The notes beneath the pieces were generated by a model. It worked only from the letters and a program-made list of their open reading frames with translations, ran no database searches and was not told the DNA's origin. Below are positions 580-46,582 of a stretch of 64,000 nucleotides of DNA, one piece after another. Numbering within the stretch: position 1 is the first letter of the stretch; every line of letters begins with the position of its first letter. The translations under genes were made by a program, and so were the position numbers. This stretch comes from Naegleria gruberi. Lineage: Eukaryota. The stretch lies in assembly GCA_000004985.1 (NCBI GenBank), contig GG738862.1; one strand, given 5' to 3'.

Positions 580-1245
580 TCAAAATCCACTACCACCACC
601 AAAATTAAAACCACTACCGTTACTTGGTTTAATTGGTGGTTTAGTTCCAAATGTAGTACTAGTACTTCCAAAAGCAAATCCAGTAGTAGGTTTAGTTTCC
701 ACATTTTCCAAATATTTCGAAATCAATTGTTGATGGGACTTTGAAATCAATTCAGTCAATCCATCCATACTGTAATATCTTGCCTCAACAAACAAACTCT
801 CCAAAGCATGATTATCACTAGGAAGCACAAAATTCTTCACATCACCTCCACTTCTCAAATAATTCAAAATATATCTGAAATAAGTTGGATCTCTATCAAT
901 AAAAATTGATTCATCAGCCGAATCTTTGATTAAATTATGTAAACCAGAGACAAGTGAATTGAAATAATTTGGATCATAGTGCGTATTTTCTAATGATTTT
1001 GAAGGTTTGATCAATTTTTGAGTTAAAGTTTCTTTGGAAACTGCAAAAATAACGCCTCCAACGTTTAGTTTAATTATTTCACCATCTTGGAATTCGTATT
1101 TGGTGGAAACTTTTTTCAATTCAAGGAATTCGTGTTCTCTCTTTGTCATGGAAGTGCTCCAAGAGGAAAGTTTTTCTTCTAGTTGTTTCATAGTTTCCGA
1201 AATATCTTGTTTGATGGTGTCAAAAGTATTCTCAGAGTTGTTCAT
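580..1245 (-). CDS. BTB/POZ (T1/KCTD-type tetramerisation) domain protein with Gly/Phe-rich C-terminal tail, 221 aa
   Basis: The ORF contains the K+ channel tetramerisation-type BTB signature (IKLNVGGVIFAVSKETL ... IFIDRDPTYFRYILNYLRSG ... LESLFVEARYYSMDGL). The C-terminus is FG/GF-rich. ATG start with A-rich context; TGA stop. Confidence 0.75.
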   Translation of the reverse strand: MNNSENTFDTIKQDISETMKQLEEKLSSWSTSMTKREHEFLELKKVSTKYEFQDGEIIKLNVGGVIFAVSKETLTQKLIKPSKSLENTHYDPNYFNSLVSGLHNLIKDSADESIFIDRDPTYFRYILNYLRSGGDVKNFVLPSDNHALESLFVEARYYSMDGLTELISKSHQQLISKYLENVETKPTTGFAFGSTSTTFGTKPPIKPSNGSGFNFGGGSGF

Positions 1246-6138: not shown

Positions 6139-6812
6139 TAATTTTTTAAATAAACCACAATTCGAAAGATGCAATTTTCATGAAACCTCACAACAACTAA
6201 GGAATTAAGGTGAACAACAACGAGAGATAAGGGAACAATACAGCAAAATACCATCCATTGAACGGACAGAGCCACCATTCAGATGACTGTTTCCTGTTCA
6301 TTCTCTCGTTTCATCTGAGGAAGTGGCCTGTCTTTTAGTATCTTTTTTCATGACCAAACTGTGATTGAAGAGGACTGCTAGCTAATGAATTTTGGGTTCA
6401 TCATTTCGAAAAAGAATGTGCTTAGTGGAAAAACATGATAGTTGAACTTGGCTTTACAACGTAAACTTATTTATCCATTTGAGGATCTCTTAATTTCCAA
6501 ACAATTTTCCCAAAATTGCCTCATAAATTATCAACCTATCATCCCTCATCTTGAAATTATTGAAATATTTTAAGCCAATGATTGTTTTAAGTTGTTTACA
6601 TGTTAGAGTACTGTAACGTAAACTTGTAACAAGATTTTGTGCGCATTCCACTACATTCTTCAGAGGTCACTACCGATACTGCTTCTTGTTCACACCAGGG
6701 ATGATATCGAGGATTTTGTTGAGTTTTTCACAAACACAACAACAGAAAAAAACGAACAAATTGAGGATTTGAGGATCTTTGATAACAATTTTGAAGAGTA
6801 ATATATAGCAAG

Positions 6813-8349
6813 ATGAGTGATATTGCAAGCGATTTTGAAACTGTACCAGAACCATACAAGATTAAGGTAGTAGAACCAATTAAATTAATTGCAAGACAGG
6901 AGAGAGAAGTTGCCATTAAGGAAGCTGGCCTCAATCAATTCTTATTAAAATCTGATGATGTTTTCATTGACTTATTAACGGACAGGTAAGTGGTATTATC
7001 TTGTTTCAAACCTATATAAAATCGGAACTTATTCAACTTTATCAATTTGTTACAGTGGTACAGGTGCAATGAGTCAAAACCAGTGGGCTGGGATGATGCT
7101 TGGTGATGAATCATACACTGGAAGGTTTGTTTTCATTTTCTTCTTTTAACCAAATGATGTAATAATAACTATTAATACATAATATGTAATCAGCCGTAAT
7201 TATTATAATCTCCAAAAGAGTGTGGAAGATATCTTGGGATTTAAATACTATTGTCCAACCCATCAAGGAAGAGGTGCTGAAAATATCTTGTTTGGTATCA
7301 TCATTAAGAAGGGTCAATATATTCTCGGAAATTATCACTTTGATACTACAAAGGCACATATTGAATTGAATTCTGGTTTGGCTGTCAATTTAATTCATGA
7401 AAGAGCTTATAACACATCTGTTGAACATCCATTTAAGGGAAATATTGATCTTGAAAAGTTGGAACACTTTATTGTGGAAAAGACTCCAGAAAAGATTGCA
7501 TTCTTGTTAATGACCATCACTTGTAATAGTGTTGGTGGTCAACCTGTTTCAATGGAAAATCTTCGTGGTGCCTATCAAGTTGCAAAGAAGTATAATTTAC
7601 CAATCTTTATTGATGCTGCTCGTTTTGCAGAGAATGCTTACTTTATTAAGAAGAGAGAAGCAGGTTATGAAAATAAGACAATTACAGAAATTGTTTGAGA
7701 AATGTTCTCATACAGTGATGGTTGTACAATGAGTGCCAAGAAGGATGGTCTTGTCAATATTGGTGGTATGATTGGTATTAAGGAGGATGAAGAATTATTC
7801 AAAAAGGTTAAACAAAGATGTGTTCCAATGGAAGGTTTCCCAACTTATGGTGGTTTGGCTGGCAGAGATATGGAAGCTTTGGCAATTGGTATGAGAGAAG
7901 TTGTAGATGAAGCTTATTTGGCTTCTCGTATCGATCAAGTTGAATATTTGGGAAGAAAGTTGAAAGAAGCTGGCATTCCTATTCAACAACCGTTGGGAGG
8001 TCATGCAGTTTTCATCAATGCTAAAGAATTCTTGCCTCACATTCCTCAAACTCAATATCCAGCTCAAGCTCTCTGTGTGGAATTGTATCTTGAGGGTGGT
8101 GTTAGAGCTGTTGAAGTGGGAACTTTATTGGCAGGTAGAGATCCAGAAACTGGTTTGGAAATTTTACCTGAACTCGATCTTTTACGTTTGACAATACCAA
8201 GAAGAGTTTATACAAATAATCACATGGATTGGGTTGCCACTTGCTTGAAGAGAATTGCTGCCAGAAAGGACAGGATTAGAGGGTTGAAGATTGTTGAAGA
8301 ACCACCAATTTTACGTCACTTTATGGCAAGATTTGATTGGGCAGAATAA
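6813..8349 (+). CDS. tnaA: tryptophanase (tryptophan indole-lyase, beta-eliminating lyase family); 3 exons, interrupted by an in-frame TGA at 7696–7698
   Basis: The protein aligns along its whole length to bacterial TnaA. Matching blocks include [15 protein letters not shown]..., [125 protein letters not shown] and [18 protein letters not shown]. Exons are 6813–6985, 7056–7124 and 7194–8349, with introns 6986–7055 (GTAAGT..AG) and 7125–7193 (GTTTGT..AG). Exon 3 restores the conserved ...GS|RNYY... alignment. A TGA stop sits in frame exactly at the position of a conserved Arg (E. coli ...ITRETYKY..., here ...ITEIV*EMFSYS...). The gene is either a pseudogene, a sequencing error (CGA to TGA) or a read-through case. 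Exon 1 start is accurate to ±1 nt. Confidence 0.8.
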
Positions 8350-8722
8350 ATTATTTTTATTTTGTAAAGTTAATATAATATTTAAGATTAACAGACGAAC
8401 ATTCGACAATGTAGCTACCATTGAATCCATTCAAACAAACAAAAAAATGAGCGTGAATATATAAAATGGTCGACCAATTTTCTATTGAATTGTATGATTG
8501 GAATAGATTCTCCAAGAATGTAAGTACACGATTAGTTTCGAATAATTAAATGTGAAATGAAATGCAGGTATTGCTCGATAGAACTGCTTTGATTTTTAAA
8601 CCTTATGATGTCACTCCAAAAGAAAACACTTGGATTGGGATGAAAGTGGAAAAGTGGAAGATCTGATTCCACAACTGAATAAACCCAGATCAAACCAAAA
8701 CCATAACTTCTCTCAAAACTTC

Positions 8723-8795
8723 TGCTGACGGACGGGATCGAACCGGCGACCAATGGCTTATTAGACCAACGCTCTACCGACTGAGCTACGCCAGC
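8723..8795 (-). tRNA. tRNA-Ile: tRNA-Ile (anticodon AAU)
   Basis: The reverse complement GCTGGCGTAGCTCAGTCGGTAGAGCGTTGGTCTAATAAGCCATTGGTCGCCGGTTCGATCCCGTCCGTCAGCA folds as a cloverleaf. The acceptor stem is GCTGGCG/CGTCAGC with one G·U pair. A and B boxes are present (TAGCTCAGTCGG, GGTTCGATCC). The anticodon loop CTAATAA gives anticodon AAT. It is similar to eukaryotic tRNA-Ile(AAU). One mismatch in the T-stem. Confidence 0.8.
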
Positions 8796-8869
8796 TTATT
8801 GATAATAATTGGTTTTAATAATTCTGTAAATGATGCTATGTCATTTGACATTTTAAATATATAACTCAA

Positions 8870-8990
8870 ATTGAAATTGTTCTCAATAAAATGTAGGGTT
8901 TGTTTAGAAATTGTTCTCAATAAAATGTAACATAACGTAGCTCTTTCAACGTTAAAATTATTAAATACCAACTGAGCTACGCCAGCTTCT
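8870..8990. repeat. tandem ~23-bp direct repeat (GAAATTGTTCTCAATAAAATGTA x2) plus a 21-nt duplicate of the tRNA-Ile 5' acceptor/D-arm segment (8969–8989)
   Basis: aaattgttctcaataaaatgta occurs twice at ~8872–8895 and ~8910–8933. ccaactgagctacgccagctt at 8969–8989 matches the 5' end of the adjacent tRNA-Ile gene (ccgactgagctacgccagctt) with one mismatch, but lacks anticodon and T arms. Confidence 0.5.
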
Positions 8991-9215
8991 AGAAGACCCT
9001 TAATGAACTTAGCAAATACCTTACCATGGTGGACAAGCTAAAAGTACTATTTTTGAACATTTTGGTAAATTGTGGTTGGTTCTCTTCTAACATGAATACA
9101 GAAGATGTCACATCTCTTTAGAACATCATAAAACTTGACAAGAAAAAATAAGCAAACAAAGCAGATCTGCAAGATTTTGAAAATTAATTTCGGCGGAACT
9201 ATTCATCAAAAAAAC

Positions 9216-10553
9216 ATGGAGAAAAAACTCGAGTCTCTCCAACGAGAAGAAATATTTTCAGATGATATTTGTTTTGAAATAATTTCCATGATTGATGATT
9301 CGTGGTTTATTTTGAATAATTGTTCCTTGATTTCAAAACAATTCTTTAATGTGATCAAGGAACGTTCAAAACTTTTTATTGAATTTAAAAAAAAATTTAC
9401 AGAAAAAAGAATTGAACTATTCACAAAGAGTCAATTTATGAATAGTATTGTTAAAGTTAAATTTTCAACAAATTTGTTTGTCTCTATTGAAAATCACAAA
9501 TTCATAAGTGAAATGAAACAATTAACTTCACTTAATATTTCTAACAATCAAATTAATGATGAAACAGCCAAATCAATAATTGAAATGAAACGATTAACAT
9601 CACTTGATATTGGTGGAAATCAAATTGGTGATGAAGGAATCAAATTAATTAGTGAAATGAAACAATTAACATTACTTGATATTAGTGGAAATAGTATTGG
9701 TGATAAAGGAGTCAAACCAATTAGTAAAATGAAACAATTAACATCACTTAATATTTATAACAACGAAATTGGTGTAGCAGGATCCAAATTTATAATTGAA
9801 ATGAAACAATTAACATCACTTGATATAAGCTACAATGAAATTGGTGATGAAGGAGCCAAATCAATAAGTGAATTGAAACAATTAACATCACTTACTGTTA
9901 GTGGAAATCAAATTGGTGATGAAGGAATCAAATTAATTAGTGAAATGAAACAATTAACATTACTTGATATTAGTGGAAATAGTATTGGTGATAAAGGAGT
10001 CAAACCAATTAGTAAAATGAAACAATTAACATCACTTAATATTTATAACAACGAAATTGGTGTAGCAGGATCCAAATTTATAATTGAAATGAAACAATTA
10101 ACATCACTTGATATAAGCTACAATGAAATTGGTGATGAAGGAGCCAAATCAATAAGTGAAATGAAACAATTAACATCACTTACTATTAGTGGAAATCAAA
10201 TTGGTGATGAAGGAATCAAATTAATTAGTGAAATGAAACAATTAACATTACTTGATATTAGTGGAAAATCAGTTGGTGATAAAGGAGTCAAATCAATTAG
10301 TAAAATGAAACAATTAACATCACTTACTATTTATACCAATGAAATTGGTGTAGCAGGAGCCAAATTTATAAGTGAAATGAAACAATTAACATCACTTGAT
10401 ATAAGCTACAATGAAATTGGTGATGAAGGAGCAAAATCAATAAGTGAATTGAAACAATTAACATTACTTGATATTAGTGGAAATGGAATTGGTGATGAAG
10501 GATCCAAATTTATAATTGGAATGAAACAATTAAAATCACTTGATATTCAGTAG
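9216..10553 (+). CDS. F-box-like / leucine-rich-repeat (RNI-type) protein, 445 aa
   Basis: The N-terminus is F-box-like (EIFSDDICFEIISMIDD..LISKQFFNVIKERSKL). It is followed by ~14 consecutive 24-residue RNI-like LRRs (LTSLDISGNQIGDEGIKLISEMKQ...). First ATG at 9216 with an A-rich context; TAG stop. Confidence 0.8.
   Translation: MEKKLESLQREEIFSDDICFEIISMIDDSWFILNNCSLISKQFFNVIKERSKLFIEFKKKFTEKRIELFTKSQFMNSIVKVKFSTNLFVSIENHKFISEMKQLTSLNISNNQINDETAKSIIEMKRLTSLDIGGNQIGDEGIKLISEMKQLTLLDISGNSIGDKGVKPISKMKQLTSLNIYNNEIGVAGSKFIIEMKQLTSLDISYNEIGDEGAKSISELKQLTSLTVSGNQIGDEGIKLISEMKQLTLLDISGNSIGDKGVKPISKMKQLTSLNIYNNEIGVAGSKFIIEMKQLTSLDISYNEIGDEGAKSISEMKQLTSLTISGNQIGDEGIKLISEMKQLTLLDISGKSVGDKGVKSISKMKQLTSLTIYTNEIGVAGAKFISEMKQLTSLDISYNEIGDEGAKSISELKQLTLLDISGNGIGDEGSKFIIGMKQLKSLDIQ
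9598..10480. repeat. intragenic tandem repeat, 288-bp unit (4 LRRs) x3; first two units near-identical
   Basis: The DNA block tcacttgatattggtggaaatcaaattggtgatgaaggaatcaaattaattagtgaaatgaaacaattaacattacttgatattagtggaaatagtattggtgataaagga... recurs almost base-for-base 288 bp downstream. A third, diverged copy follows. Confidence 0.7.
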
Positions 10554-10927
10554 TATTATACAGTCAATCCTTTGTTAAGCACTAACATATGGTTCCTTTA
10601 AATTACGATTAGTTAACCTAATATAAATGTAGCAAGTATTTTAACAGTCCAACCTGCATTACAATGGACAGTGTTATTGTAAAAGGAGTGGGATTGAAAC
10701 AAGCAAGGAATTTCATAGATTGGGAGTAACTGGCTGTCAGGAATCAACAGGCAACAGAATTAATCGAAAAGGAAAATGGAATGATAGATTAATGACTTAA
10801 AAATCGATTTGACACTCTATCATCAATCGAGCTATTGTTCCATCTTCCTGGTTGTTACTAACTTCCACCATAAAAATTGCAATCAACTTGCTGCATTGAG
10901 TTCCACTTAAAAAAAATAGGCAGAACA

Positions 10928-12148
10928 ATGTTCCCATTTCACAAACGGAAAACCCAACTGTTGGACGAAACTTCATTGGAAACAGTGGATATTTTGTCTC
11001 TTGTTTTTCAATTTCTCGAGCTGAAAGAATTATTCGCTCTCCAAAAAGTATCACCCTTCTTCTACCGAACCATTGAACATTTGAAATCCTTACTGATCCG
11101 ACCAATATATGAAGTTGGTTTAGTTTCGTCCGATAAGAAACAATTATCGGAATTTCTTCAACTTACTTTAAAATCAGAATTAATTAGTTCAGCCACAAAG
11201 GAAAACCCACAAAAAGTTTCAAGTACTAGATACACTTATTATTCTACAACCGAAATCGACATGACAGATAAAAATGATGGCAATCAGCTCAAAAGTGTGA
11301 AATTTGGAGAGCATCATATGATTCATGCTTTTAACAAGGTTGAAAAGGAGTTTGTCTTTAAGAATGATAGATTTAGAGTATTCTTTTATCCATTGTATTG
11401 TGAAAAGAGTACGAGTTTATCACATGATGATTATCAACGACTGGATGGGTTCATATTTTTGAATCCAAACAGCAAAGATGGATATTCAACAATGCCGAAT
11501 GGATGTAGTTTTTGTGCAACACTCTTGGATTATAATAATTCTTCAGTTGCCAATGAAACAGTACTAATGCCAGTAAGAAATTTCGGATCTTTTAAAGTTG
11601 AGAAAGTGAGTGAAAGATATTCGATAGAACAATCAATTCTCGACTGTATTAATTACATTTCAGAGAACTCAAATCGATCAATTCAATTGAACTCAATAGG
11701 AGATGGCTTAAAATCATGTTTATTAGAAAAAATTTCATTAATCATTAAGGAACCCAATGATGAAATGGTTGCCACTAAAATATCAGATCTATTCAAGAAC
11801 AAATACACACTCAAAGAGCTGATACTCTCAGAGAAAGTGAGATACATGACCAGAAAATTGAATTTCTTCAATTATCCACACAATGTCCAATTCAGTCTTT
11901 TGAAAAGACTTTACACAGCTCATTTGGGAAATGAAAATGTTAAATTCAAAGATGATCTCTATGCCATTCAGGTTATTTTCAATCAGCAATTCAATTCTAG
12001 AAAAAGGGATTCATACGATGACCATTTGGTGGAAATGAAAACTACGCTCTCATTCAATTTAGTATCTCAGGAAATTAAGTTCGAATACAAGAATATTACA
12101 AGAGCAAGTACTATTGGCATTAGTAATAAAAAGTGCATCATTTGTTAG
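10928..12148 (+). CDS. F-box-like hypothetical protein, 406 aa, C-terminal ...KKCIIC
   Basis: The N-terminus has an F-box-like helix pattern (TVDILSLVFQFLELKELFALQKVSPFFYRTIEHL). Long non-repetitive ORF; first ATG at 10928; TAG stop. Confidence 0.6.
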   Translation: MFPFHKRKTQLLDETSLETVDILSLVFQFLELKELFALQKVSPFFYRTIEHLKSLLIRPIYEVGLVSSDKKQLSEFLQLTLKSELISSATKENPQKVSSTRYTYYSTTEIDMTDKNDGNQLKSVKFGEHHMIHAFNKVEKEFVFKNDRFRVFFYPLYCEKSTSLSHDDYQRLDGFIFLNPNSKDGYSTMPNGCSFCATLLDYNNSSVANETVLMPVRNFGSFKVEKVSERYSIEQSILDCINYISENSNRSIQLNSIGDGLKSCLLEKISLIIKEPNDEMVATKISDLFKNKYTLKELILSEKVRYMTRKLNFFNYPHNVQFSLLKRLYTAHLGNENVKFKDDLYAIQVIFNQQFNSRKRDSYDDHLVEMKTTLSFNLVSQEIKFEYKNITRASTIGISNKKCIIC

Positions 12149-12363
12149 TCAATTCCAATTAAGAAAATTCTTCTTAGATCGGAGCAAAATATAAATTTTA
12201 ATTTTAATTAATATTTTAAAAAATGTTGTATTAACAACTTCATCCATCTACCAAATCATCATCACGAATAACAAAATAAATCATCAAAAACAGATATTCT
12301 TTACCTTCATGAAAAACACTAAACCATCATCAATCCTTCTAGTATGGGATTAGCATTTAAAAA

Positions 12364-13446
12364 ATGGGCAATAATCAAACCACTTCTCACAGATCCCTTC
12401 CTACCGAGCATGCATCTTTCTCCAATTCTTCTCGCGAATATGCCAATCAATACATAATGATCGCAGGTGGTCCATCAGTAGTAATTTATCAAGGCTTGGT
12501 TGATCAAATAATTTCTATCGAAAATCGAATAGAAAATGCTGCTAATTATGAGAAGGTAAAGAGTGAATGTCTGAAAGGTATTCAGCAACGTTTGGTGAAA
12601 TATTTCCCTGTTCATTTTCATGATACAGTTTCGGAAAAGATAGAAGAACAATTGGTTGACCTGTGGCATAGCCCCAATTTTAAAGAGGAATACTTTGCGA
12701 ATAGATTCCAGGTAGATCCATACTTGGTCTTGCCAACTGTATTTAATAATTTGGAGAGAGGAATCAAATTTAATTTGAAAAGAACTTGCTTGTTCCAACC
12801 AGCAGGTAGACAATATTATTTCACAACATGCTATTCGAAAACAACTGATAATTTTCCACACAGCCGTAATCAAAAGTTGACATTTGAATTATTTGCTAAT
12901 TGTTTTTCTGCTGATACTTGGGCTGATGTAGTTGGAGCATCATTTTCTCTATCTGACTATGATAACAATCAATATTTAGATGAATTTTATCAAGTGTGTA
13001 GAAGATTGTCTGGATTTTCTACATACAGAATGATTTTAATATTTACTCATCTTGATGTTCTCAATGAAAAGATAAAGTTGGGACTAATTAACTATGGAGG
13101 AGATAAAGATATAGAAATTCGAAAAGAATTCAATCATATTCCAAAAGAATGTGCTCTCATCATTGAATATCTCATCAAAGAAGCCAAAAAAAATATAGAA
13201 ATGAATCCAAGCCATGACTTTCCCAATAGGACATTGGAATACCACATTGTAAATACATCAAGTGACAGTGATATGAAAGAATTATTGGATTGTATTTGTA
13301 TTGGAGCAAATTCTAAGAGAAAATGCTTCATATCCTCTAAAATTGAAATGCCACCTTTCTCATATCCTAACACCAGATTCAAGAGCAACATGCACAGAAC
13401 CTCAGAACTAAATCAGTTTTGTGATATTGCAATATTGCTAAATTGA
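12364..13446 (+). CDS. G-alpha-like protein with degenerate nucleotide-binding motifs (pseudo-GTPase), N-terminal MG... myristoylation-type start, 360 aa
   Basis: Sequence blocks are collinear with heterotrimeric G-alpha subunits. The P-loop position reads IMIAGGPSVVIY (versus LLLLGAGESGKST). The switch II/DVGGQ position reads FELFANCFSADTWADV. The block ASFSLSDYDNNQYLDEFY matches CVALSDYD. The NKXD position reads ILIFTHLDVLNEKIK (versus ILFLNKKDLFEEKI). The C-terminal position reads HIVNTSSDSDMKELLDCI (versus FTCATDTKNVQFVFDAV). The protein starts MGNNQT. No intron is needed. Confidence 0.6.
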   Translation: MGNNQTTSHRSLPTEHASFSNSSREYANQYIMIAGGPSVVIYQGLVDQIISIENRIENAANYEKVKSECLKGIQQRLVKYFPVHFHDTVSEKIEEQLVDLWHSPNFKEEYFANRFQVDPYLVLPTVFNNLERGIKFNLKRTCLFQPAGRQYYFTTCYSKTTDNFPHSRNQKLTFELFANCFSADTWADVVGASFSLSDYDNNQYLDEFYQVCRRLSGFSTYRMILIFTHLDVLNEKIKLGLINYGGDKDIEIRKEFNHIPKECALIIEYLIKEAKKNIEMNPSHDFPNRTLEYHIVNTSSDSDMKELLDCICIGANSKRKCFISSKIEMPPFSYPNTRFKSNMHRTSELNQFCDIAILLN

Positions 13447-13492
13447 CTTTAGTTTTCCATTTCCTAAAGGTCAGAACTCTTCAAAATAAAAA

Positions 13493-14533
13493 ATGAGCCA
13501 ACAAGAAAAGGAGGAAACAGTGGCACCAACCAAAGAAGAATCACCACAGCCAGTTTTTCCCGATGATGTGATATTTGAAATTATTTCCTTCAATAATGAT
13601 TTTAAATTTACAGTAAGGAGTTGTGCGTTGGTTTCTTCACAGTGGTTTAATGTCATTTTGGAAAGATCAAAACTTTCACTCACACACAACAGTAAAAAGA
13701 AAATTAATGGCCAATTTTTACAGCGTATTGTAGCTGTCAATGGGATGAAAAAATGTGATTGTATTCCATTTCTTGATCAAGTATTTGATCTCAAGAACTT
13801 GACTACCCTTGACGTTAATTGTATGAAAATTAAAGATGAAGGAGTAAAGATAATAAGTGAAATGAAACAGTTGACCAATCTTAATGTAGGCAGCAGTGGT
13901 ATTAGTGTTGAGGGAGTCAAATATATCAGCGGCATGAATCAATTAACTAATCTCAATATAAGCCGCAATAATATACGAGCAGAAGGAGCCCGTTACGTTA
14001 GTGAAATGAAACTATTAACCAATCTTAATATTTATTTAAACGGTATTAGAGCAGAAGGTACCAAATACATCAGTGAAATGAAAGAATTGACTTGTCTTAA
14101 TATAATGAGTAATGCAATTCACGATAAAGGCGCAGAACACCTTCGTCAAATGCCTAAATTGAATACACTCAATATTAATTCAAATAGTATCAGTGTAGAA
14201 GGAGCCAAATTTATTAGTGAAATACAGTCATTAACTAATCTTGATATTGGTTTCAATACTATTGGAGATGACGGTGTCAAATTTATAAGCAAAATGGAAA
14301 AACTAACAAAACTTTATACAATGTACATTAATATTGGAGAAAAAGGAGCCAAACACATTAGTGAAATGGAACAATTAACTAGTCTCAATATTAATTCGAA
14401 TAATGTAGGAACAGAAGGAGCAAAGTACTTATGTGAAATGAAACATTTAACATATATGAATATTTGCAACAACAATGTAGACAAACAATCCCAATTTATC
14501 AAAGATGCTACAGTCTGTTTCATCCAATGCTGA
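13493..14533 (+). CDS. F-box-like / leucine-rich-repeat (RNI-type) protein, 346 aa
   Basis: The N-terminus (DDVIFEIISFNNDFKFTVRSCALVSSQWFNVILERSKL) parallels the 9216 gene. About 10 RNI-like LRRs follow (LTNLNISRNNIRAEGARYVSEMKL...). ATG at 13493; TGA stop. Confidence 0.75.
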   Translation: MSQQEKEETVAPTKEESPQPVFPDDVIFEIISFNNDFKFTVRSCALVSSQWFNVILERSKLSLTHNSKKKINGQFLQRIVAVNGMKKCDCIPFLDQVFDLKNLTTLDVNCMKIKDEGVKIISEMKQLTNLNVGSSGISVEGVKYISGMNQLTNLNISRNNIRAEGARYVSEMKLLTNLNIYLNGIRAEGTKYISEMKELTCLNIMSNAIHDKGAEHLRQMPKLNTLNINSNSISVEGAKFISEIQSLTNLDIGFNTIGDDGVKFISKMEKLTKLYTMYINIGEKGAKHISEMEQLTSLNINSNNVGTEGAKYLCEMKHLTYMNICNNNVDKQSQFIKDATVCFIQC

Positions 14534-15100
14534 ACGCAAAAAAATGAAGTTTTTCAAACTTTTAGTCAGGAATGGCAGTTTTCTGATCGATTGGCCTTTG
14601 TGTTTTGCTACTTACCATTGCTTTATTGGCGTGTGACTAGACATGTTTTTCAACATTGGCTGAAACAGACTGTATGAAACACATTAAAATTAGATAGGAT
14701 CCGTCTGATTTTCACAACTTGATTGTAAAGTGAAATTCATTAGCAAAATTTCATTTTAGTAACACATCTTTCACATTGGGAGTAGATAGATGAATTGGAT
14801 AACACACGCAACTTAGGGTCTCTCCTACTAAATTAGGAAGTAAAACATTATTGAGAGAGATGAAATTTGCCGTGATAATTGCTATTTCACTTGTCGGTTG
14901 TGGCACATACTCATAAAAGCAAGAATGTTACTCTTCCACCAACTTTCGTAACCTGATTCCAAACTGAACTATCTGAAAGTCATCCACAAATATTTCTTAC
15001 TGTATCGATACCCTTTCGATTATAATCCTCATGATATTTTGCTAACAGTAAATCACACTGATTCACAAAACACATCAAAACAAAAATTCCACACATCAAA

Positions 15101-16093
15101 ATGAAATCCTTCTTCCATTCACTTTCGTTTGTATTACTGTTACTTTCGTCCTTGATGATATCCATCGCAAATGGACAACAATCCAATTCCACCACCCCAA
15201 CCTACACCATTTCGAGGGATTTCGTCAATGCCATCGATAATGCCATGAGTAAATTAATAGTTGACCCTGATTTTCAGAAAGGAATGAATGATCTTGGAAT
15301 GATCTTTTCAAGTCCTTCATGTTCTGCACTTCCATACACGAGATTGGCAATTCCTGATGCTCCTACAAGTCTCACTCTACCAAGAACAAGTCCACTTGTG
15401 ATGTGTTATGAAAATGATGCTTTATTTCAGTTTCCAGCTGTTCATGAGTTGGCAGGAAGAATTCTTATCAAGATTTTGAATAGCAAATATAATAAGGATA
15501 TTCCATATACGTTCATGAAGGTGAATACTACTGTTTTGGGATATTTCAATACTTTGAAATCTTTGGTGGATAATGGATCTTGTGATGTTGCCATAGCTTC
15601 TACAAATTTGGACACAGATCGTTTATCCAAGGTCCATTTCAATTGTCCGTATGGTTCTTCATCTCCTGGATTTTTGAGATCTGCATTGGATAATGGCACT
15701 GTCATTATTAATTCTGAATCTGATATTGATTCTGCTAATGTTACAGTATTGACCTATAAGGGAAGTTCTTATGATACCTATGCCAAATCAACCTATAAGA
15801 ATGCAATCGTTAAAAGTGTTTCGTCTGGATATACTGAATGTTTCGACATGATTATGAAGAAAGAAGCTCACGTATTGTTAGGTGATGCAACTGACATGGC
15901 TACTTGGTTGTCCAGAAACAGAAATGCATGTGGTGCTTCTTGTTTTACAAAAGTTTATGGAAATCCATTCTCATTTGGTTCTTTCCTTTCTAATAATATT
16001 AGAGAATCGAATGCAAATTTAGTTTCAAATGGAATTTTGAATAATGTCATGATAATTATTGGAATGTTACTCTTGATTTTCACTACCCTGTAA
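15101..16093 (+). CDS. secreted protein with a bacterial solute-binding-protein family 3-like domain and hydrophobic C-terminus (GPI-anchor or TM-like), 330 aa
   Basis: N-terminal signal peptide (MKSFFHSLSFVLLLLSSLMISIANG). The central region resembles an SBP_bac_3/iGluR ligand-binding lobe (SCDVAIASTNLDTDRLSKVHFNCPYGSSSPGFL). The C-terminus is a hydrophobic stretch NVMIIIGMLLLIFTTL. Confidence 0.6.
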   Translation: MKSFFHSLSFVLLLLSSLMISIANGQQSNSTTPTYTISRDFVNAIDNAMSKLIVDPDFQKGMNDLGMIFSSPSCSALPYTRLAIPDAPTSLTLPRTSPLVMCYENDALFQFPAVHELAGRILIKILNSKYNKDIPYTFMKVNTTVLGYFNTLKSLVDNGSCDVAIASTNLDTDRLSKVHFNCPYGSSSPGFLRSALDNGTVIINSESDIDSANVTVLTYKGSSYDTYAKSTYKNAIVKSVSSGYTECFDMIMKKEAHVLLGDATDMATWLSRNRNACGASCFTKVYGNPFSFGSFLSNNIRESNANLVSNGILNNVMIIIGMLLLIFTTL

Positions 16094-16199
16094 ATAATCC
16101 CATCTTTCATTTTCAATTTTGAACTCGAGAAATTTTTGTAACATAAAAACAGATAAACAGCAAATTCAAAGTTAAAATTGCATTTTCAAATTTCAAAAA

Positions 16200-17336
16200 A
16201 TGTCTCAACAACAAAACAACACAACCACTAACTCGAACAATAGCCCTTACGCAGCATTTGCATCAAATACTCCAAGAAATAACAACCCTAACAATTTCCG
16301 AAAGAAACACAAGTTTTTCCTAAAGGTTTCTAACGAAAACAATTCATCATCTACCTCTTCATCAAATCAAGCCTCATCTTCTTCTGATGATCAAAATAAT
16401 TCTTTGGAAAATAATCAACAACAACTAATTGATGGATTTAAATGTTGTACTTATAATATTCATGTTTTTAAATCAGGAAATGGACAAACAACTTTAGATA
16501 AGCTAATTGATTATCTAACTGTTGGACAGATTGGATCTAAACCTTTTGATATCATTGGATTGAATGAAGCTTTCGAGTCGAAATATAGAAGGGGACAAAT
16601 TTTGACACCTTTAAATGAAATTCAAAAGTCACTTACTAAATATTATGGAACAGAATACAAGTGTTATTATGCACCAACTTGTAAAACGATGGGAAATTGT
16701 TTCATAACTGCATTGCCTGTTAAGAAAACTCAAACTTGGAGACTTGCGAAAGGACCTGGTGGAGTGAGAAATGTTTTAGGATTGCAACTTGATTTGGAGA
16801 AATGCAAGTCACCAGTTGAATATTTCTTTCTCACACATTTGGATTTTATTAATGAGGAATGGAGAGTGAAACAATTTTCACAGATTTTGGAATTTATGGA
16901 AAAATTCATGAGACAATCGTTCAATACTAAGGATAATAATTTTGTAATGATGGGAGATTTCAATGCCATGTATAAGAATGATTATACTCAAGAATTTTGG
17001 GATCAAATTCAAATGGACAGAATGCAAGAGCAATGGGAACCAGCTGTCAGTACTCTTATGGACATTTTGCTTGGTGACATTAAGGATGAGCGATTACCCA
17101 TTCAGAAAAATCTCAAATGCGAAAAATTATATGATACATGGCGAATGTGCAATAAGGAATTACAATTCAATGGTAGAAACCTTTCCTCCTCAAGACTGAA
17201 AACCAGAATTGACTATATTCTTTGCTCTAAGAGTTTATCCAAGAATGTTCTCCACAGCTGCATTGATACCAAATCAAAAACTACTTCAATTTCAGATCAC
17301 AATCCAGTCATTACACACTTTTCCTTTTTAGCATAG
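16200..17336 (+). CDS. endonuclease/exonuclease/phosphatase (EEP) family protein with N/S/Q-rich N-terminus, 378 aa
   Basis: EEP catalytic motifs are present: IIGLNEA..., MGDFNAMY, RIDYILCS, SDHNPVITHFSF. The first ~75 residues are low-complexity N/S/Q. Confidence 0.7.
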   Translation: MSQQQNNTTTNSNNSPYAAFASNTPRNNNPNNFRKKHKFFLKVSNENNSSSTSSSNQASSSSDDQNNSLENNQQQLIDGFKCCTYNIHVFKSGNGQTTLDKLIDYLTVGQIGSKPFDIIGLNEAFESKYRRGQILTPLNEIQKSLTKYYGTEYKCYYAPTCKTMGNCFITALPVKKTQTWRLAKGPGGVRNVLGLQLDLEKCKSPVEYFFLTHLDFINEEWRVKQFSQILEFMEKFMRQSFNTKDNNFVMMGDFNAMYKNDYTQEFWDQIQMDRMQEQWEPAVSTLMDILLGDIKDERLPIQKNLKCEKLYDTWRMCNKELQFNGRNLSSSRLKTRIDYILCSKSLSKNVLHSCIDTKSKTTSISDHNPVITHFSFLA

Positions 17337-17593
17337 CTTTTCAACATTGAAACACTACAAATTAATAGTATGCAGCATAGTTCTGCAGTAAATTAAGCAT
17401 TGTCCAATTCCAAAATGGTATGACACAATTCTCCTTCGTTCGTTCTATTTCATTCTCTAAGGACCTCCAAAGTGTTGCACCTCAATAAATACATCCGCAC
17501 CATCTATTTCAAGGAACACCTTCAATGTGAAAAACCTAACAATCTCGAAAAAAATGGTTAATGGACTAGCTGTATTTTAGTGACAACAGTTGC

Positions 17594-17932
17594 ATGGTTG
17601 TACCATTAGTGTTCTTTCCTGAGAAATTATTGGCCAAATTGCAATTTGAATTGAAACCTTTAATGTACGGTCGTTTGTTGGGAGTTGCCTATTCTGCCTT
17701 ATTAGTAGGTTATGGACATGGATTGCATTCTGTATTGGTTGAGAATGTCTATCCAAAACACATTGTTTGGATGGGTCTAGTGAGTAATGGAGGAGCTTTT
17801 ACTGTATTATTGAGTGAAATTCTCAACAAATTGTCAACTGGAAAGAAACTTAAAGTTGTCGAAGTTGCCTCAATGATTACTCTTGGACTCATTTCACTTG
17901 GATTATTAATTTTTGGTCCACTTTCTAATTAA
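17594..17932 (+). CDS. small multi-pass membrane protein (TMEM14/UPF0136-like, tentative), 112 aa
   Basis: Three to four hydrophobic helices with small-residue motifs (GVAYSALLVGYGHG..., GLVSNGGAFTVLL, MITLGLISLGLLIFG). ATG start. Family assignment is by pattern only. Confidence 0.4.
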   Translation: MVVPLVFFPEKLLAKLQFELKPLMYGRLLGVAYSALLVGYGHGLHSVLVENVYPKHIVWMGLVSNGGAFTVLLSEILNKLSTGKKLKVVEVASMITLGLISLGLLIFGPLSN

Positions 17933-18064
17933 TCCATTGTTAACTTGATAGAATTCCCAAAATACTGACTTTTTTCCATTCCTTTTTGGAGTGTGAAGAA
18001 AGAAATTGATTGAAAATTAAAAAAACACATCAAAAATTTATTGAATTAAAATTTTAAATAAAAA

Positions 18065-19195
18065 ATGTTTTCGGGTTCAAAGTTGCGATTCCTGTGTCGT
18101 CGTCTGCATCAACATCAACATCATCAGATGATGGAGAGTAATTTTCATCATCAACATCAACAAACAATGCTTCTTCTTCGGAAATCCATGGTGATGAATA
18201 AACCACTCTATAATTATAGTACAAGCACAATAACAGCCAATGAAGCTACAACAACCGAGTCGACTCCAACAACCACTACTAATACACCAACAACAGCAAC
18301 AACAACTTCAACAACAACAAATTCTAATACAATGAAGTACACATCAACAGAAATTAGACTCATCAAGAAACAAAAAGAAAGAGTTTTGAAAAAGGAAAAG
18401 ATTGATGAAGTAGTTGGGAAACTTTTCAATATTAACCAGAAGAAGGAAATGGGACAATTTTCAGAAAATGTTGTGGATGTAGTATCGGAGACACCTGCTG
18501 TTGAAAAGAAGAAGAGAAAATCGAAAAAGGCTGAAGCTAAAGAAGCAGCATCAAAAGCAATTGTTGAAGAACCAATCAAGAAGGAAGCCTTTACAAATCC
18601 AGAAATCGATTCTCTTGTCGATAATATTCTCACCATGACCATTGCAGGACAAGCTAGTTTGGCTGCCTCTGCTGAAGAAGAAGATGAATTAATTTCTCTG
18701 TTAAAGACAAAGAGAAGACAAAGATTCAACACTTTAAATAGTAATAATGGTGTTAATGTTGGTCCGACAACTTACAAGTCATCAATCGACAAGTTTTCAC
18801 AACAAGAAGTTGATTTTAAACAATATACACAAACCAAGGAATCTGAATTGTCTTCACCTCTTGAAATGTCAGAAGAGGGTGATGAAGATATTAAAACTCC
18901 ACAAATTGATCCAGAGGATGAGGATATTCTTTCTTATTTACGTGAATTGAAGGATAGAACAGTCAAACAAAAGGAAGAAGAAAAGAAATCAGCATTGGAA
19001 AATGACAATGAATTGGATGAGGAAGATAAGATTGTTGAGAAAGCTTGGCAAGATATTGCCTCAAAGCCAGAAAGTGCTGCCAAGACTGTAGAAGCTGAAC
19101 TTGATGAACCAGTTTCAAGATCTTCTAAATCATCTTCCAATAATTCAAAGAAGGACGATGTCATTATGCAATTTTTACAAGATCTCCTCAAATAA
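18065..19195 (+). CDS. hypothetical charged/low-complexity protein (His/Gln, Thr-rich, then K/E-rich), 376 aa
   Basis: ATG-initiated ORF with coding-like periodicity. It has poly-Thr/Asn tracts and a K/E-rich middle. No recognisable domain. Confidence 0.5.
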   Translation: MFSGSKLRFLCRRLHQHQHHQMMESNFHHQHQQTMLLLRKSMVMNKPLYNYSTSTITANEATTTESTPTTTTNTPTTATTTSTTTNSNTMKYTSTEIRLIKKQKERVLKKEKIDEVVGKLFNINQKKEMGQFSENVVDVVSETPAVEKKKRKSKKAEAKEAASKAIVEEPIKKEAFTNPEIDSLVDNILTMTIAGQASLAASAEEEDELISLLKTKRRQRFNTLNSNNGVNVGPTTYKSSIDKFSQQEVDFKQYTQTKESELSSPLEMSEEGDEDIKTPQIDPEDEDILSYLRELKDRTVKQKEEEKKSALENDNELDEEDKIVEKAWQDIASKPESAAKTVEAELDEPVSRSSKSSSNNSKKDDVIMQFLQDLLK

Positions 19196-19698: not shown

Positions 19699-20999
19699 AT
19701 GATCAACAGTAGTTGTTGGTTGGTAGCTGTTTTGTTGATGTTGTGCCTCGTCTCAACTGCAACATGTGCTATTGCCTTGGCTGGTAATAAGAGAGCTGCT
19801 CCATCAACTGCTATGTGTACTCGTTACACTTCTGCATCATTGGTTGGAGATGTTGATTTGAGTAAGGTCACTCCAAAGCCTGTTAACTGTCCTTTGGGAT
19901 GTAATTTGTATACTGTTTCTGGCTCTGCATTGGGTTATAATGGTCCACTTGGGGCTTTGGGGTATGTTGTGTAGCTTTTATGATTTGTTTTACTATTTAT
20001 CAAACATTTTCATTATCATGATCAATCAGTCCTTTGGGTCCTTTGGGTCCTGTTTCCACTGGTACCCCTTACAATGTTCCTGATAATTTTGTTTGGTATG
20101 GAAATAACTTTAATACTTACCTTAAGGAAATGAATGCATGTGATAAGTTATTGAGCCATCCACAAAATCCACTCTCTTCTGCTGGCCCAATGGGTGATGC
20201 TTTCTTTGATGTCATGCCAAAGATTAACGATTTCACTAAACACATGATGGGTAAGTTGTTAAATAGTATTTGAATGCTAATAGGAATATTTCAATACGAA
20301 ATGTTGATGAAACCATTATTATATATTTACAAATTTTACACATTAAAAGGTATGGGAGTTTGGACTGTTTTGGGACCATTGGGACCTTTGGGCCCACTTG
20401 GTGCTTTGGGACCATTGGGTCCAGTTGGTTGCCACATGTTGGACGTTGATAAGGATGGTCAATTCGTCAGTAAGAAGGGTGAAGTTTTGAGAACTACCTC
20501 AGTTGTTTATAACTCGTCCCTCACTGTTAACTGGCCTCTTTTCGAAAGATATAAGAGTAGAGAATTCGTTGACAAATTGTCCAAGAAGGGTTTGCTCGAC
20601 ACTTCTTTCATGGTTTCTGCTAGTGTTGATATTACTGGTCATGCCTATGACATGGTTGTTACTGAACCTCAATACGTCACTGTCACTGTTATCCCAACTC
20701 TCTGGGCTAAGAACTTCTTCTTGGAAGCTTTCATTAACGGTAAATCTGTTATGAAGTCTGAAAAGCTCTTATTCACTCCTTGGTTCCAAGTCCACATTTC
20801 TGGAGCTGATTTGCAAAATGCTGGTCCAGGTGGAGCTAAATTGAAGGTTGTCATTAAGACTGATCCTCTCGATTGTGGAATGATGTCTGTCTTTGGATGT
20901 ACTATGGATTACACAATGCATGTTGTTGGTTCAACTTCATTCATGATGAGAAAGCCACACCTCAGTTACACTGGTCCACATATTAAGCAATGTGAATAA
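19699..20999 (+). CDS. secreted protein with two short collagen-like (GPL/GAL/GPV) Gly-X-Y runs; 3 exons
   Basis: Signal peptide MINSSCWLVAVLLMLCLVSTATCAIALA. Exons are 19699–19961, 20030–20250 and 20350–20999. Introns are 19962–20029 (GTATGT..CAG) and 20251–20349 (GTAAGT..AAG). Both sit at or next to the GPLG-coding repeats and restore frame (anchored to ORF ends). The spliced protein reads ...YNGPLGALGGPLGPLGPV... and ...KHMMGMGVWTVLGPLGPLGPLGALGPLGPVG.... It has a Cys-containing C-terminal domain of unknown function. Confidence 0.65.
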
Positions 21000-26539: not shown

Positions 26540-26617
26540 ATTTTTGATAATTAATTATGATTACAATCTCTTTATTGGTGGTGTAACCTTGAAAAAGATT
26601 GAAAAAATCAGCAACAC

Positions 26618-29600
26618 ATGACTGCAAACATCAACAAGCTTCAGTGCTGGCGGTCTTACTTGTTGATTCTTCTCTCTGTTATCCTTCTCGTTGGTGATGC
26701 ATCACCATTATCTTCATCAGCCCACTCAACATATGTTCGCTATCAGTTTGAAACTCTTGCCGGAAACCTTCAACCAGTTTTTTCTCTGTCATTCAAACAA
26801 ATTCAACAATCCAAAGTCAATCCTGATATTCTCTTCATAGTGTCTGCAAGTGATTCTCTTTACAAGTACAATCAAACAAGTGGAGAAAGGAACCTACTGG
26901 TCGGATGTGATGTGTTATCCTATAACTTGTGCATTAAAGAATCAATGGTAACCAACATTTCCCATCTGGCAACATCTGTTTCTATCTACATTACTGGATT
27001 TCATGTGATGGTTTCTTCTAATGAACAAGTAATTTATATTAGCACCGACCATCAATTGTTTCGAATGGAAAATAAGAATATTACACTCCTTTCGGCAATG
27101 TGGTCGACTAGTGATGAAAATCCAAACTTGGATGGAATGCATATTTCGGATAGTTGGTTTAGGTTTTTAAAATCAGTTGTTGTTGATGAAGATGAGAAGA
27201 CTTTATATCTTGCAGATGGACAAGTTATTAGAAAGTTGGATGTGGAAACTGGTATTTTAAAGTCCATCACAACAACAGGAGATGACCCAGTATCTAAGTT
27301 TGATGGACCTGCCAATCAGACTGTTCTTAAACTGCCACAAAAACTACTCCTTCATAATGGATTTCTTTATGGAAATGATGCATTTTCACTTTTTAAAATT
27401 AATATTCAAAGTGGATGGTTGACAGTAATAACTGGCACGATCAATTATATATTAGGTGTTAATTTTCCAGCTCCAAAATCAGGTGATAATGCTAAAAATT
27501 CAACACTTTTATCAATTCGTGGATTTCACATTATGGAGGATGATTCCATTCTAATAATTTCTGGAAATACTTTTTATCAGATCGATCAAAAAAGTGGATT
27601 ACTAACTATACTTTACAATTTTGAAGAAGCTATCTTTTTGGCAACACCCAATTTGGTATTTTCATTACAAAAGGTTTACAAATTAAATAGATTGAATTGG
27701 TCTATGGAAACAATTATAGATTCACATATTGGGGCCATTACGGATGGTTCAATAGCAAAGAATAGAAAATTCTTTGACATTTCAGCACTGACAATGAACG
27801 AAACCACTGGGGATTTACTATTTTCTGATTCATTGTCAAATTACAATCTTTACAAAGTTGATAAGGATGGAAGGTTTTTCACAGTGAATTTACAAATGTC
27901 AAACGTATCTTGTTGGAATTCCTCTATCAGAACTGATAGCTCTTTAACATTCAATCCAGTCTCTTTCCAATTGAGAAACTCTACTTTATATGTTGCCAAT
28001 TCTGGAATGCACAGTTCAATCCAAAAATTTGATCTATCTCAACAAGGATCAAGTTGCTTCTATTCAGGATCAATTTCAAGTGATAGACTTTTGCAACAAG
28101 GGAGTGGACTATCCATGTTGGTTAATAACCCTACTGGATTATATTGTAATATCAATTCTGACGAGATATTTGTTGCCGACACTGAAAACCACAGAATTCT
28201 CAAATATATTTCACATAATCTAGTTCAAGTAATTGCAGGTACTGGAAAGCAAGGTTTTTCAGGAGATGGTGGCTTAGCCATTCATGCTCAACTGAATAGA
28301 CCTCACTCAATTTCCTACGATCGTTCCAATAGAGATCTTTACATTGCAGGTATGTCATTCATTTTCATTATTTTAACATTCATAAAGATTCTGGAAATCA
28401 CAGAATTCGAAAGATTTCTTCTGATGGAACTATTTCTACAATTTTAGGAACTGGCTCGGGTGGATTTAATGGAGATGGTCTCCCTCCATTACAAACGCAA
28501 ATTAATTTCCCTAAAGGTGTTACTTACTCACCCTTTCTGGGAATTGCAATTTCTGATACCTATAACCATAGAGTGAGATTATTTAGAGAAGGAAATGTGA
28601 GCACAATATTGGGAACTGGAACATCTGGAATGAAAGTAGTGGAGGATAATCCAACAGAGACAGAGATTATTTCACCTTTTGGTCTGGTTTGGGCTGAATC
28701 AACTTCATCCCTTTACATAGCTGGTAAGTTTCGAATTTTAGTCGAACATTGACAAATTGTTTCAGATCAATTCAATCACAGAATATTACATCTCCAATAT
28801 CTATATGGTAGTGTAGCAATCATTGCAGGAACCAATTTACCTGGATATAATGGAGATGGCATGAAAGCTAACTTAGCCAAACTATTTCTTCCAAGTTCTG
28901 TAGTTTTGGCTCCTGACAATACAATTCTAATTGCAGACACTTACAATAATTTAATAAGGAAAATTAGTAATGGAATAATTTCTTCATTTGAAACAAAAAT
29001 TGGTCTTGGTCAATCCTATCAAATCAAACAACCGATTGGGTTGTGTTTAACATTATCTGGACCTTTTGTGACAACTGAAAATGCCGTTACCTCATTAAGT
29101 TCAGGCTATACCTCCAACATAATTGGAGGAAATGGAGATGGAATGAATGTTTATTATGCAGATGTTAATCCAACAAGAATGATACTCTCTCCATTTGGAA
29201 ATGAAGGATCAATGATATTTTCAGAATCGAATTCGAATAGAATAAGATATGTCGACAGTAATGGAATCATTTCAACCATTGTTGGTTGTGGAGTATTTGG
29301 ATATATGGGTGATAAATATCCTTCTCAATTTGCCTTTCTTGCTTCACCTACTGGTATAGCACTGAATCCAATAACAAATGATTTAATTTTCTGCGATACC
29401 TCCAATAATCGTATTAGAATAGCTTCTATAAATGAATTAAACGTAGTTGATACGATTGCTGGAACAGGAAATAGCGCATATGATTCAGAAGTATCAGATC
29501 CCTTACTCTCACCACTCAATAAGCCAAGAGTGGTTGCCACATTTAGCAATGGTGACATTGTCATTGGAGACACTTTAAATAATCTATTCAAGATGATTTC

Positions 29601-31431
29601 AAGGAGAGACGGAAAAATTAGAGCCATTGGTATGGGATTTGCAACTGACATGTACGTCACTAAGGATAACATTATCATCTTTTCATCAAGGGAAGAACTT
29701 ATCAAGATGGTTCCTTATTGTGATCTTGGCTATCAATTAGTTGAGAAAAATACCGACTGCATTCCAGTATGTTTTGGATTGACTGGAAATTTGACATGTA
29801 CTAGAAATGGAGAATGCACCTTACCAAATACTTGTAAATGCTCACCTGATTTCACTGGAAAAGCGTGCGAAATTCCAATTTGTTTTGGTTTACCATCCAA
29901 TTCTTCTAATGTTTGTAATAATGGAAATGGAACCTGTGTGTCACCAAATAAGTGCGTTTGTAATGATGGGTTTTATGGAGATCAGTGTCAATATCCTCTT
30001 TGTTTCTCATCATTAATAGAGGAATCATGTGGTGGAATTAATAGAGGAAGGTGTGTCCATAGAAATAAGTGTGAATGTAAGGATAATTTCACAGGTAGAC
30101 AATGTGAATATAGATCTTGTCTTGGAAAGAGTGAAGTTGACCAAAAAGTTTGCAATGGAAATGGTAGGTGTGGATCTGCAGGAAAATGCGAATGTAATTT
30201 GGGTTATTCTGGAGCAGATTGTTCTGATTTGACTCAAGTCTATGCAGTGAGCATCACAGCTGCTGTCATCTTATTAATTTTGATTATTCTAATTCTTGTT
30301 TCTTCTATTTTAGGATGGTTTTTATATAAGAGAAACAGGAGAGATCGAAAGATTATTGAAACAGAACTCTCTCTTGATGAAAGACTCTTGGCAACTACAG
30401 ATCTTGAGCTCTCCCAATTCAGCACAAGTGTTGGTTCAGGATCTCAATCATCCTCAGATGATTCTCCTTCATTTGTCATTCCACTTCACAAGCTAGGAAT
30501 GGATAAGCCAATTCGTAGATTGGGAGAAGGAGGCATGGGAAGCGTATTCATGACCAAATATAATGGAATGATTGTTGCTGTCAAGGTTTTTGATTTGAAT
30601 AATTTCAATATTTCAGAGGAAGATTTTAGAAATGAAGCCATTTTACTAAGTAGAATCAGACACCCAAATATTATAACTTTCTATGGAGTTTCTTCATCTC
30701 CTACGAAACGTTTTATAGTAATGGAATGTTTGGATCAGAGCTTGGAAAAGTTTATTTCTAAATTGGAAACTAAACTAATCAATCTTTCATTAGACCAAAA
30801 ATTGAAAATGTTATTGAATATTGCTAATGGAATTGAATATCTACATACAATGCAACCTAGAAAGATTATTCACCGTGACTTGAAACCTCAAAATATCCTT
30901 CTAGATTCGAATGGAAATTGTAAAGTTTGCGATTTTGGATTAAGCAAATCCATTTCACAAGGAACTATCTCAACAATCACTAATCAATTAGGTACTTTTT
31001 ATTATATGAGCCCAGAAATGTTTGATATTGAAGCTGTCGATCCTACTTACGCTACTGCAATTGACATTTACAGTTTCAGTATTATTGGATGGCAATTATT
31101 ATTCGAAAGCAAAGATCCTTACGTTTACAATAGTCAAGAAGTAGCTAGAAAGTTGAGCTCCAAACTACTCGAACATGTAACCTCCTACCAATTGACCAAG
31201 TTAATTTGTGAAAACAATCACAGACCTGCCATTCCATTCAATTCTCTCAAATCATGTCGTGAATGGTGTTTGGAATTTTTACCCACAACTGAACAAGAAA
31301 ATTATTCAATAGTATTCAAGTTATGCCAACTCATCAAACAATGTTGGCAAGGAAATCCAAAACTTCGACCAAGCATTGAACAAATTGTTGAACAATTACA
31401 AACCTTAGAACAAGAATTTAACAAGATTTAA
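26618..31431 (+). CDS. receptor-type protein kinase: signal peptide, large NHL-repeat ectodomain, ~5 tenascin-type EGF-like Cys repeats, one TM helix, TKL-like Ser/Thr kinase domain; 3 exons, ~1577 aa
   Basis: Exons are 26618–28349, 28388–28723 and 28766–31431. Introns are 28350–28387 (GTATGT..AAG, 38 nt) and 28724–28765 (GTAAGT..CAG, 42 nt). Both interrupt NHL motifs (LYIAG|DSGNHRIRKI; LYIAG|DQFNHRILHL) and restore frame into the ORF starting at 28861. NHL repeats (..ADT.NHRI.K...) are spread over residues ~100–950. EGF-like repeats are CxCxxGFxGxxCxxxxC (residues ~1000–1170). TM helix is VYAVSITAAVILLILIILILVSSILGWFLY. Kinase motifs are GEGGMGSV, VAVKVF, HRDLKPQNILLD, DFGLSK, YMSPE. Confidence 0.8.
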
Positions 31432-46508: not shown

Positions 46509-46582
46509 GCCTTCCTAGCTCAGTTGGCAGTAGCGCTGTCCTAGTAAGACAGAGGTCTTGGGTTCGATTCCCAAGGGAGGCA
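46509..46582 (+). tRNA. tRNA-Thr: tRNA-Thr (anticodon AGU)
   Basis: GCCTTCCTAGCTCAGTTGGCAGTAGCGCTGTCCTAGTAAGACAGAGGTCTTGGGTTCGATTCCCAAGGGAGGCA. Acceptor is GCCTTCC/GGGAGGC. Anticodon stem-loop is CTGTC-CTAGTAA-GACAG with anticodon AGT. T-arm is TTGGG-TTCGATT-CCCAA. It resembles eukaryotic tRNA-Thr(AGU). Confidence 0.85.

Follow-up and report, generated by a model that had tools for sequence, protein, structure and literature searches.

An in-frame TGA codon interrupts a bacterial-type tryptophanase gene in the Naegleria gruberi genome assembly

A tryptophanase reading frame of Naegleria gruberi is broken by a single TGA codon, and the locus raises the question of whether this codon is a genuine stop, a consensus error, part of an intron or a codon that is decoded. 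The analysis was performed on one strand of a 64,000-nt stretch (hereafter the window) of contig GG738862.1, assembly GCA_000004985.1, which is nuclear DNA with a GC content of 34% and no Ns. The gene is present in the public record as NAEGRDRAFT_66340 (XP_002678275.1, EFC45531.1, UniProt D2VBU7), a "predicted protein" of 453 aa. It lies among typically eukaryotic genes, namely an ABC transporter gene interrupted by small introns of the GT..AG type, an NHL-EGF-kinase receptor gene, and F-box and LRR repeat genes.

The original prediction described two adjacent ORFs, 7222-7698 and 7702-8349, laid out in bacterial style and split by the TGA. The two ORFs do lie in one frame, with nothing between them but the TGA at 7696-7698 and one GAA codon (7690-7704 reads ATT GTT TGA GAA ATG), and their joined translation could be aligned with 119 bacterial proteins of the tryptophanase family, with no gap at the TGA, which bears out the interruption itself. 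However, these ORFs cover only part of the gene. The codons for residues 1-81 lie in two exons further upstream, and the two introns, which had been overlooked, make this a eukaryotic gene of three exons. The features of the gene are as follows.

6813-6985, plus strand: exon 1, with the ATG at 6813; codons 1-57 and two further bases
6986-7055, plus strand: intron 1, 70 nt, GTAAGT...TTACAG, phase 2
7056-7124, plus strand: exon 2, 69 nt, with a product colinear with the homologs
7125-7193, plus strand: intron 2, 69 nt, GTTTGT...AATCAG, phase 2
7194-8349, plus strand: exon 3, an open frame except for the in-frame TGA, with the TAA stop at 8347-8349
7664-7699, plus strand: 36-nt "intron" of the public model, cag/GTTATG...TTTGAG/aaa, encoding 11 residues and the stop
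7696-7698, plus strand: in-frame TGA, codon 249 of 465, in a column that is variable among the 119 homologs
7741-7743, plus strand: codon of the PLP-binding lysine (Lys264, in MSAKKD); the TGA precedes it by 15 codons

The spliced CDS comprises 1,398 nt and 465 codons. The product of exon 1 (...LLTD) matches the N-termini of the homologs and is identical to that of the public model (P0001). The excision of intron 1 restores the invariant motif DLLTDSGTGAMS (TD/SGTGAM, where the slash marks the junction), and the excision of intron 2 restores ESYTGSRNYYNL (YTG/SRNYY, likewise invariant), in both cases gapless relative to the bacterial homologs. The spliced product can be aligned from the first conserved motif through the C-terminus of these homologs, with no gap at the introns or at the TGA. 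The 3' UTR is short: the next ATG follows after about 117 nt, and a tRNA gene lies 373 nt away. This ATG opens a two-exon ORF of 50 aa at 8467-8668 (MVDQFSIELYDWNRFSKN / VLLDRTALIFKPYDVTPKENTWIGMKVEKWKI), which contains a GTAAGT..GCAG intron and matches no Pfam family; if this ORF is a real gene, it restricts the 3' UTR of the tryptophanase gene to about 117 nt.

The predicted protein matches the Pfam family Beta_elim_lyase (PF01212) with E = 6.8e-82. The scores against solved structures were about equal for tyrosine phenol-lyase (TPL; 1c7g, 555 bits) and Proteus tryptophanase (1ax4, 549 bits), with residues 11-461 aligned to the latter at E = 7.5e-164. The residues which we take to discriminate between the two enzymes are Thr124, Arg381 and Phe448 in TPL, as opposed to Asp, Ile and His in tryptophanase. 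In the alignment, the Naegleria protein carries Asp131, Val389 and His456 at these positions, which is the pattern of tryptophanase and not that of TPL, the valine being a conservative change from isoleucine. Lys264 aligns with Lys257 of TPL within the S-x-K-K-D motif (SGKKD in TPL, SAKKD here), in a column that is invariant in the homologs.

The best bacterial match was the protein of Anoxybacter fermentans; over their full length, the two proteins are 81% identical (E = 7e-255) and their genes 72%. The further relatives among the best 120 protein matches were metagenomic Firmicutes-like proteins with 75-80% identity, and no eukaryote other than Naegleria was found among these 120. In the closest bacterial relatives, tnaA lies in a conserved neighbourhood, HSP33 - tnaA - ACR_tran (efflux pump). 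This synteny is absent at the Naegleria locus, where none of the accompanying genes had been co-transferred. The GC content at third codon positions is 27% in the Naegleria gene and 33-50% in its bacterial relatives. Taken together, the bacterial relatives, the absence of bacterial synteny, the nucleotide identity of 72%, the lower GC3 and the two introns identify this as a gene that was acquired laterally from bacteria, long enough ago for two introns to have been gained since. Since both introns lie inside invariant motifs, leave no gap in the alignment and interrupt an otherwise bacterial-derived gene, they are clear gains after the transfer. No similar copies of introns 1 and 2 that would indicate an introner or repeat origin were present elsewhere in the window.

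The Naegleria gene shares with the bacterial TnaA (EC 4.1.99.1, from the Firmicutes clade near Anoxybacter fermentans) the PF01212 domain, the PLP lysine and the triad Asp131/Val389/His456. It differs in that it lies in a eukaryotic chromosome between ABC-transporter and LRR genes and carries two spliceosomal introns and the in-frame TGA. Tryptophanases acquired laterally have been described in other protists, namely Trichomonas, Entamoeba, Mastigamoeba, Blastocystis and Monocercomonoides (PMC6759080, PMC8537960). The feature common to all of them is a bacterial-type tryptophanase in a microbial eukaryote, whereas the Naegleria copy is interrupted by a stop. Naegleria is missing from the list of tryptophanase-bearing eukaryotes in PMC6759080, and the tnaA tree of PMC8537960 includes it; the premature stop is not mentioned in the available parts of either paper.

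The identity to the closest homolog (P0002) is 79% upstream of the TGA and 82% downstream. The gapless alignment to the 119 proteins, the best bacterial match and the Pfam match exclude chance as the source of the interrupted homology. The TGA had been placed at a conserved arginine and attributed to a change from CGA. The first of these descriptions overstates the conservation of the column, which among the 119 homologs holds Arg in 66, Lys in 36, Leu in nine, His in four, Gln in two and Val and Met in one each; neither Cys nor Trp occurs there in any of the 119. The solved structures shown carry His (TPL) and Phe (Proteus tryptophanase) at this site. The two closest bacterial genes differ, with TTG (Leu) in Anoxybacter and CGG (Arg) in the other, and do not point to a single ancestral codon. 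The second description finds no support in the codon usage of the gene, in which CGA does not occur while AGA is used 17 times, TTA 13, GGA eight and CGT six times. The sense codons one step from TGA include AGA, TTA, TGG, TGT/TGC, GGA and TCA, and a change from AGA or TTA to TGA is at least as likely as one from CGA.

The full-length frame is interrupted at codon 249 and nowhere else, as no second stop or frameshift was found in the 1,398-nt CDS. Among the columns conserved in 97% or more of the 119 homologs, 82 of 84 are kept upstream of the TGA and 75 of 76 downstream. With these columns kept, no other lesion and the PLP lysine and specificity residues intact, the lesion must be recent, and the stop, if real, is very young.

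The explanation that we prefer, and to which we give somewhat better than an even chance, is that the tryptophanase gene was functional until a single base in its exon 3 was substituted very recently, which left the TGA as an ordinary stop. Under this explanation, N. gruberi or a recent ancestor would have acquired the gene from a Firmicutes-like bacterium, the two spliceosomal introns would have been gained later, and one recent substitution would then have created the TGA. If the sequence is read literally, translation would end after residue 248, before the PLP-binding Lys264. As this lysine lies downstream of the TGA, the 248-residue product, which would also be deprived of the whole C-terminal half, is predicted to be inactive. 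The sequenced copy would then be a null allele or a nascent pseudogene, and the null allele could be specific to the strain or represent one haplotype of a heterozygous locus. Our inference is that a biological substitution, and not an error of the consensus, lies behind the TGA and that the gene yields no full-length protein.

The strongest competitor is a base-call or assembly error in the consensus, in which case the true codon would be a sense codon (e.g., AGA, TTA or TGG) and the gene would encode an intact, active tryptophanase of 465 aa. We consider this unlikely. Because the gene is otherwise perfect, a consensus error would look identical to a real mutation: the lack of a second lesion, the retention of 75 of 76 conserved columns downstream and the intact catalytic and specificity residues are expected in both cases. 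The frequent codons AGA, TTA and GGA, each one substitution away from TGA, also fit an error. There is, however, no positive sign of one, as the site is free of Ns, homopolymer runs and compositional oddities, and the annotators saw the stop and modelled around it. Substitution errors are rare in a multi-fold Sanger consensus. Look-ups of the exact products of both ORFs and of the public model gave no match, and the intron-less neighbouring ORF used as a control was equally empty, so that no weight attaches to these empty results. When the C-terminal 215 aa served as the query of a protein search, the matches listed were fragments of at most 66% identity, and none of them was a near-identical Naegleria fragment; the search drew on a limited sampling, from which obvious full-length matches were absent too. 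A metagenome scan with the 23 bases flanking the codon gave two contigs, both bacterial homologs with AAA (Lys).

The third explanation was missing from the options listed in the original prediction. The public model lacks exactly 12 codons, that is, 11 residues and the TGA, which it treats as a 36-nt intron at 7664-7699. If this segment is truly spliced, wholly, partly or in some transcripts, it would be a nascent intron that arose after the nonsense mutation ("intronization") and would rescue a 453-aa protein. The model of Catania and Lynch (PMC2586383) describes how coding sequence may turn into an intron once a premature stop has arisen, and it predicts such a situation. The Naegleria segment resembles it in containing the stop, in its multiple-of-three length and GT..AG ends, and in that its intron-less ancestral state is known; the differences are its poor splice signals and the damage to the fold that is predicted from the deletion. 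The exon context is CAG/GT, and length alone is no bar, since introns of 33-42 nt are present in the N. gruberi genome.

The splice sites of the segment were compared with 12 confident introns of the window (33-107 nt), with leave-one-out scores for the 5' splice site. All 12 begin with GT[AT][AT]GT, i.e., with G at +5 and T at +6; their scores were 6.3-12.6 for 11 introns and 0.0 for the twelfth. The GTTATG of the 36-nt segment departs from this local consensus in lacking both bases and scored -1.9, a value equalled or exceeded by 36% of the decoy GTs in coding sequence; its 3' end is GAG. Moreover, there are 12 frame-preserving GT..AG pairs of 24-150 nt able to remove the TGA, of which the annotated one is the shortest, so that some such bridge over the stop is expected, and with 11 alternatives that serve equally well an artefact of gene modelling is to be expected.

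The content of the segment likewise argues against splicing. When compared with the bacterial GYENKSIxEIV, nine of its 11 residues match the majority, and 10 of 11 match homolog P0005. With such a match to the bacterial consensus, the segment was coding until very recently; none of the 119 aligned homologs lacks it. For the homolog P0002, which is intact, AlphaFold models the region with pLDDT values of 91-97 as a helix (221-231), a loop (232-239) and a second helix (240-249), followed by the strand that leads to the PLP lysine. The deletion takes away the loop and six of the 10 residues of the second helix, beside that strand. In the model of P0001, the pLDDT falls below 50 at 229-236, which is exactly the deletion junction, although AlphaFold confidence is only suggestive in this case. 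The annotated 36-nt intron is implausible, and we regard its splicing as improbable. Given the weak 5' splice site, the 12 possible pairs, the bacterial-like coding content and the drop at the AlphaFold junction, the 453-aa model is doubtful and is most likely an annotation work-around that hides the TGA.

A full-length enzyme would also result if the TGA were recoded in translation, either as selenocysteine or by programmed read-through. We find this very improbable. The downstream reading frame is perfectly kept, as recoding would require, and N. gruberi is reported to carry the selenocysteine machinery (PMC4561486, citing da Silva 2013). Against selenocysteine stand the variable, non-catalytic column, in which no homolog carries Cys, and the short 3' UTR. 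Rfam gave no SECIS match at E <= 10 over 6500-9400, although its models may miss SECIS elements of protists. A loose scan for the SECIS motif gave one weak match at 8447-8531, overlapping the start of the next ORF, and neither this match nor the 3' UTR folded better than shuffled sequences (z = +0.6 and +0.7). Programmed read-through had been listed among the options together with a recent nonsense mutation and a base error. The latter two are realistic, while no known stimulatory motif for read-through was found in GTT TGA GAA ATG, where a G follows the stop directly, and folding of the next 102 nt was no better than that of shuffled sequences (z = +0.49).

Three further routes past the stop were considered and set aside. 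The tRNA gene 373 nt downstream, a candidate suppressor, encodes a plain tRNA-Ile(AAT). Termination followed by reinitiation could use the ATG 3 nt after the stop, but this is the ancestral, conserved Met of EMFSYS and gives no hint of adaptation. Naegleria possesses DYW-type editing factors, and the editing recorded so far is C to U and mitochondrial; U-to-C editing that would restore CGA was set aside for this reason.

The remaining explanation concerns the genetic code itself. At least four domain-bearing ORFs of the window are terminated by TGA, and their frames close again 1-47 codons later:

580-1245, minus strand: BTB gene
12364-13446: G-alpha-like ORF
13493-14533: LRR gene
42556-44166: F-box/Sel1 gene

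The reassignment of TGA to a sense codon, for which codon 249 alone speaks, is effectively refuted by these ORFs. No TGA bridge in the same frame occurs elsewhere in the window except at 28750, and this one falls within a 42-nt intron of canonical form (GTAAGT...TTTCAG) in the NHL-kinase gene, which likewise speaks against reassignment. The code in use is the standard one, in line with the original prediction, which had called reassignment unlikely since several other genes use TGA as a normal stop.

Several other features of the window were recorded. The NHL-EGF-protein-kinase receptor gene (about 26603-31431) contains introns at 28350-28387 (38 nt) and 28724-28765 (42 nt), both in phase 1, and the in-frame TGA held by the second mimics read-through. 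Successive NHL repeats carry them at an identical point (...LYIA G/D...), and this shared position suggests that the intron may have been duplicated together with the repeat unit. Removal of a candidate 33-nt intron at 20251-20283 (GTAAGT...CTAATAG) would connect open frames of 76 and 237 codons; if real, this intron is near the lower size limit of spliceosomal introns. The region 9135-19195 is a run of genes on the same strand for F-box and LRR_6 (ribonuclease-inhibitor-like) proteins with near-identical repeat units, which looks like a local tandem expansion. An ORF of 983 aa at 36144-39095, with no Pfam match, has its terminal TGA adjoining an A-run (gtgtgaaaaaacat, 39077-39100), and its end is overlapped in another frame by an ORF of 154 aa at 39092-39556; this overlap could reflect a separate gene, or else a frameshift or an intron that has escaped recognition. 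The window also contains three tRNA genes, each located between genes for proteins:

8723-8795, minus strand: tRNA-Ile(AAT)
46509-46582, plus strand: tRNA-Thr(AGT)
59007-59079, plus strand: tRNA-Gln(TTG)

The reading of the TGA as a recent, ordinary stop places the Naegleria copy beside strain-level nonsense alleles and nascent unitary pseudogenes, with which it has in common that one substitution disables a gene that is conserved in all other respects. In comparison with nascent unitary pseudogenes, it shows no other degeneration and so is indistinguishable from a base error. The finding is real but ordinary, and its main value is a correction: XP_002678275.1 / D2VBU7 (453 aa) probably corresponds to no real product. 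The premature stop in the reference copy is also relevant to studies that count Naegleria among the indole-producing or tryptophanase-bearing eukaryotes or that use the sequence in trees. If the 36-nt segment were truly spliced, it would be an unusually clean natural case of intronization beside two older introns gained after the transfer, and a useful test case for intron birth. The tryptophanase gene is probably a dispensable accessory gene in this organism, and the locus represents a bacterial gene that was domesticated, as its two introns and host-like codon usage show, and that may since have been lost again.
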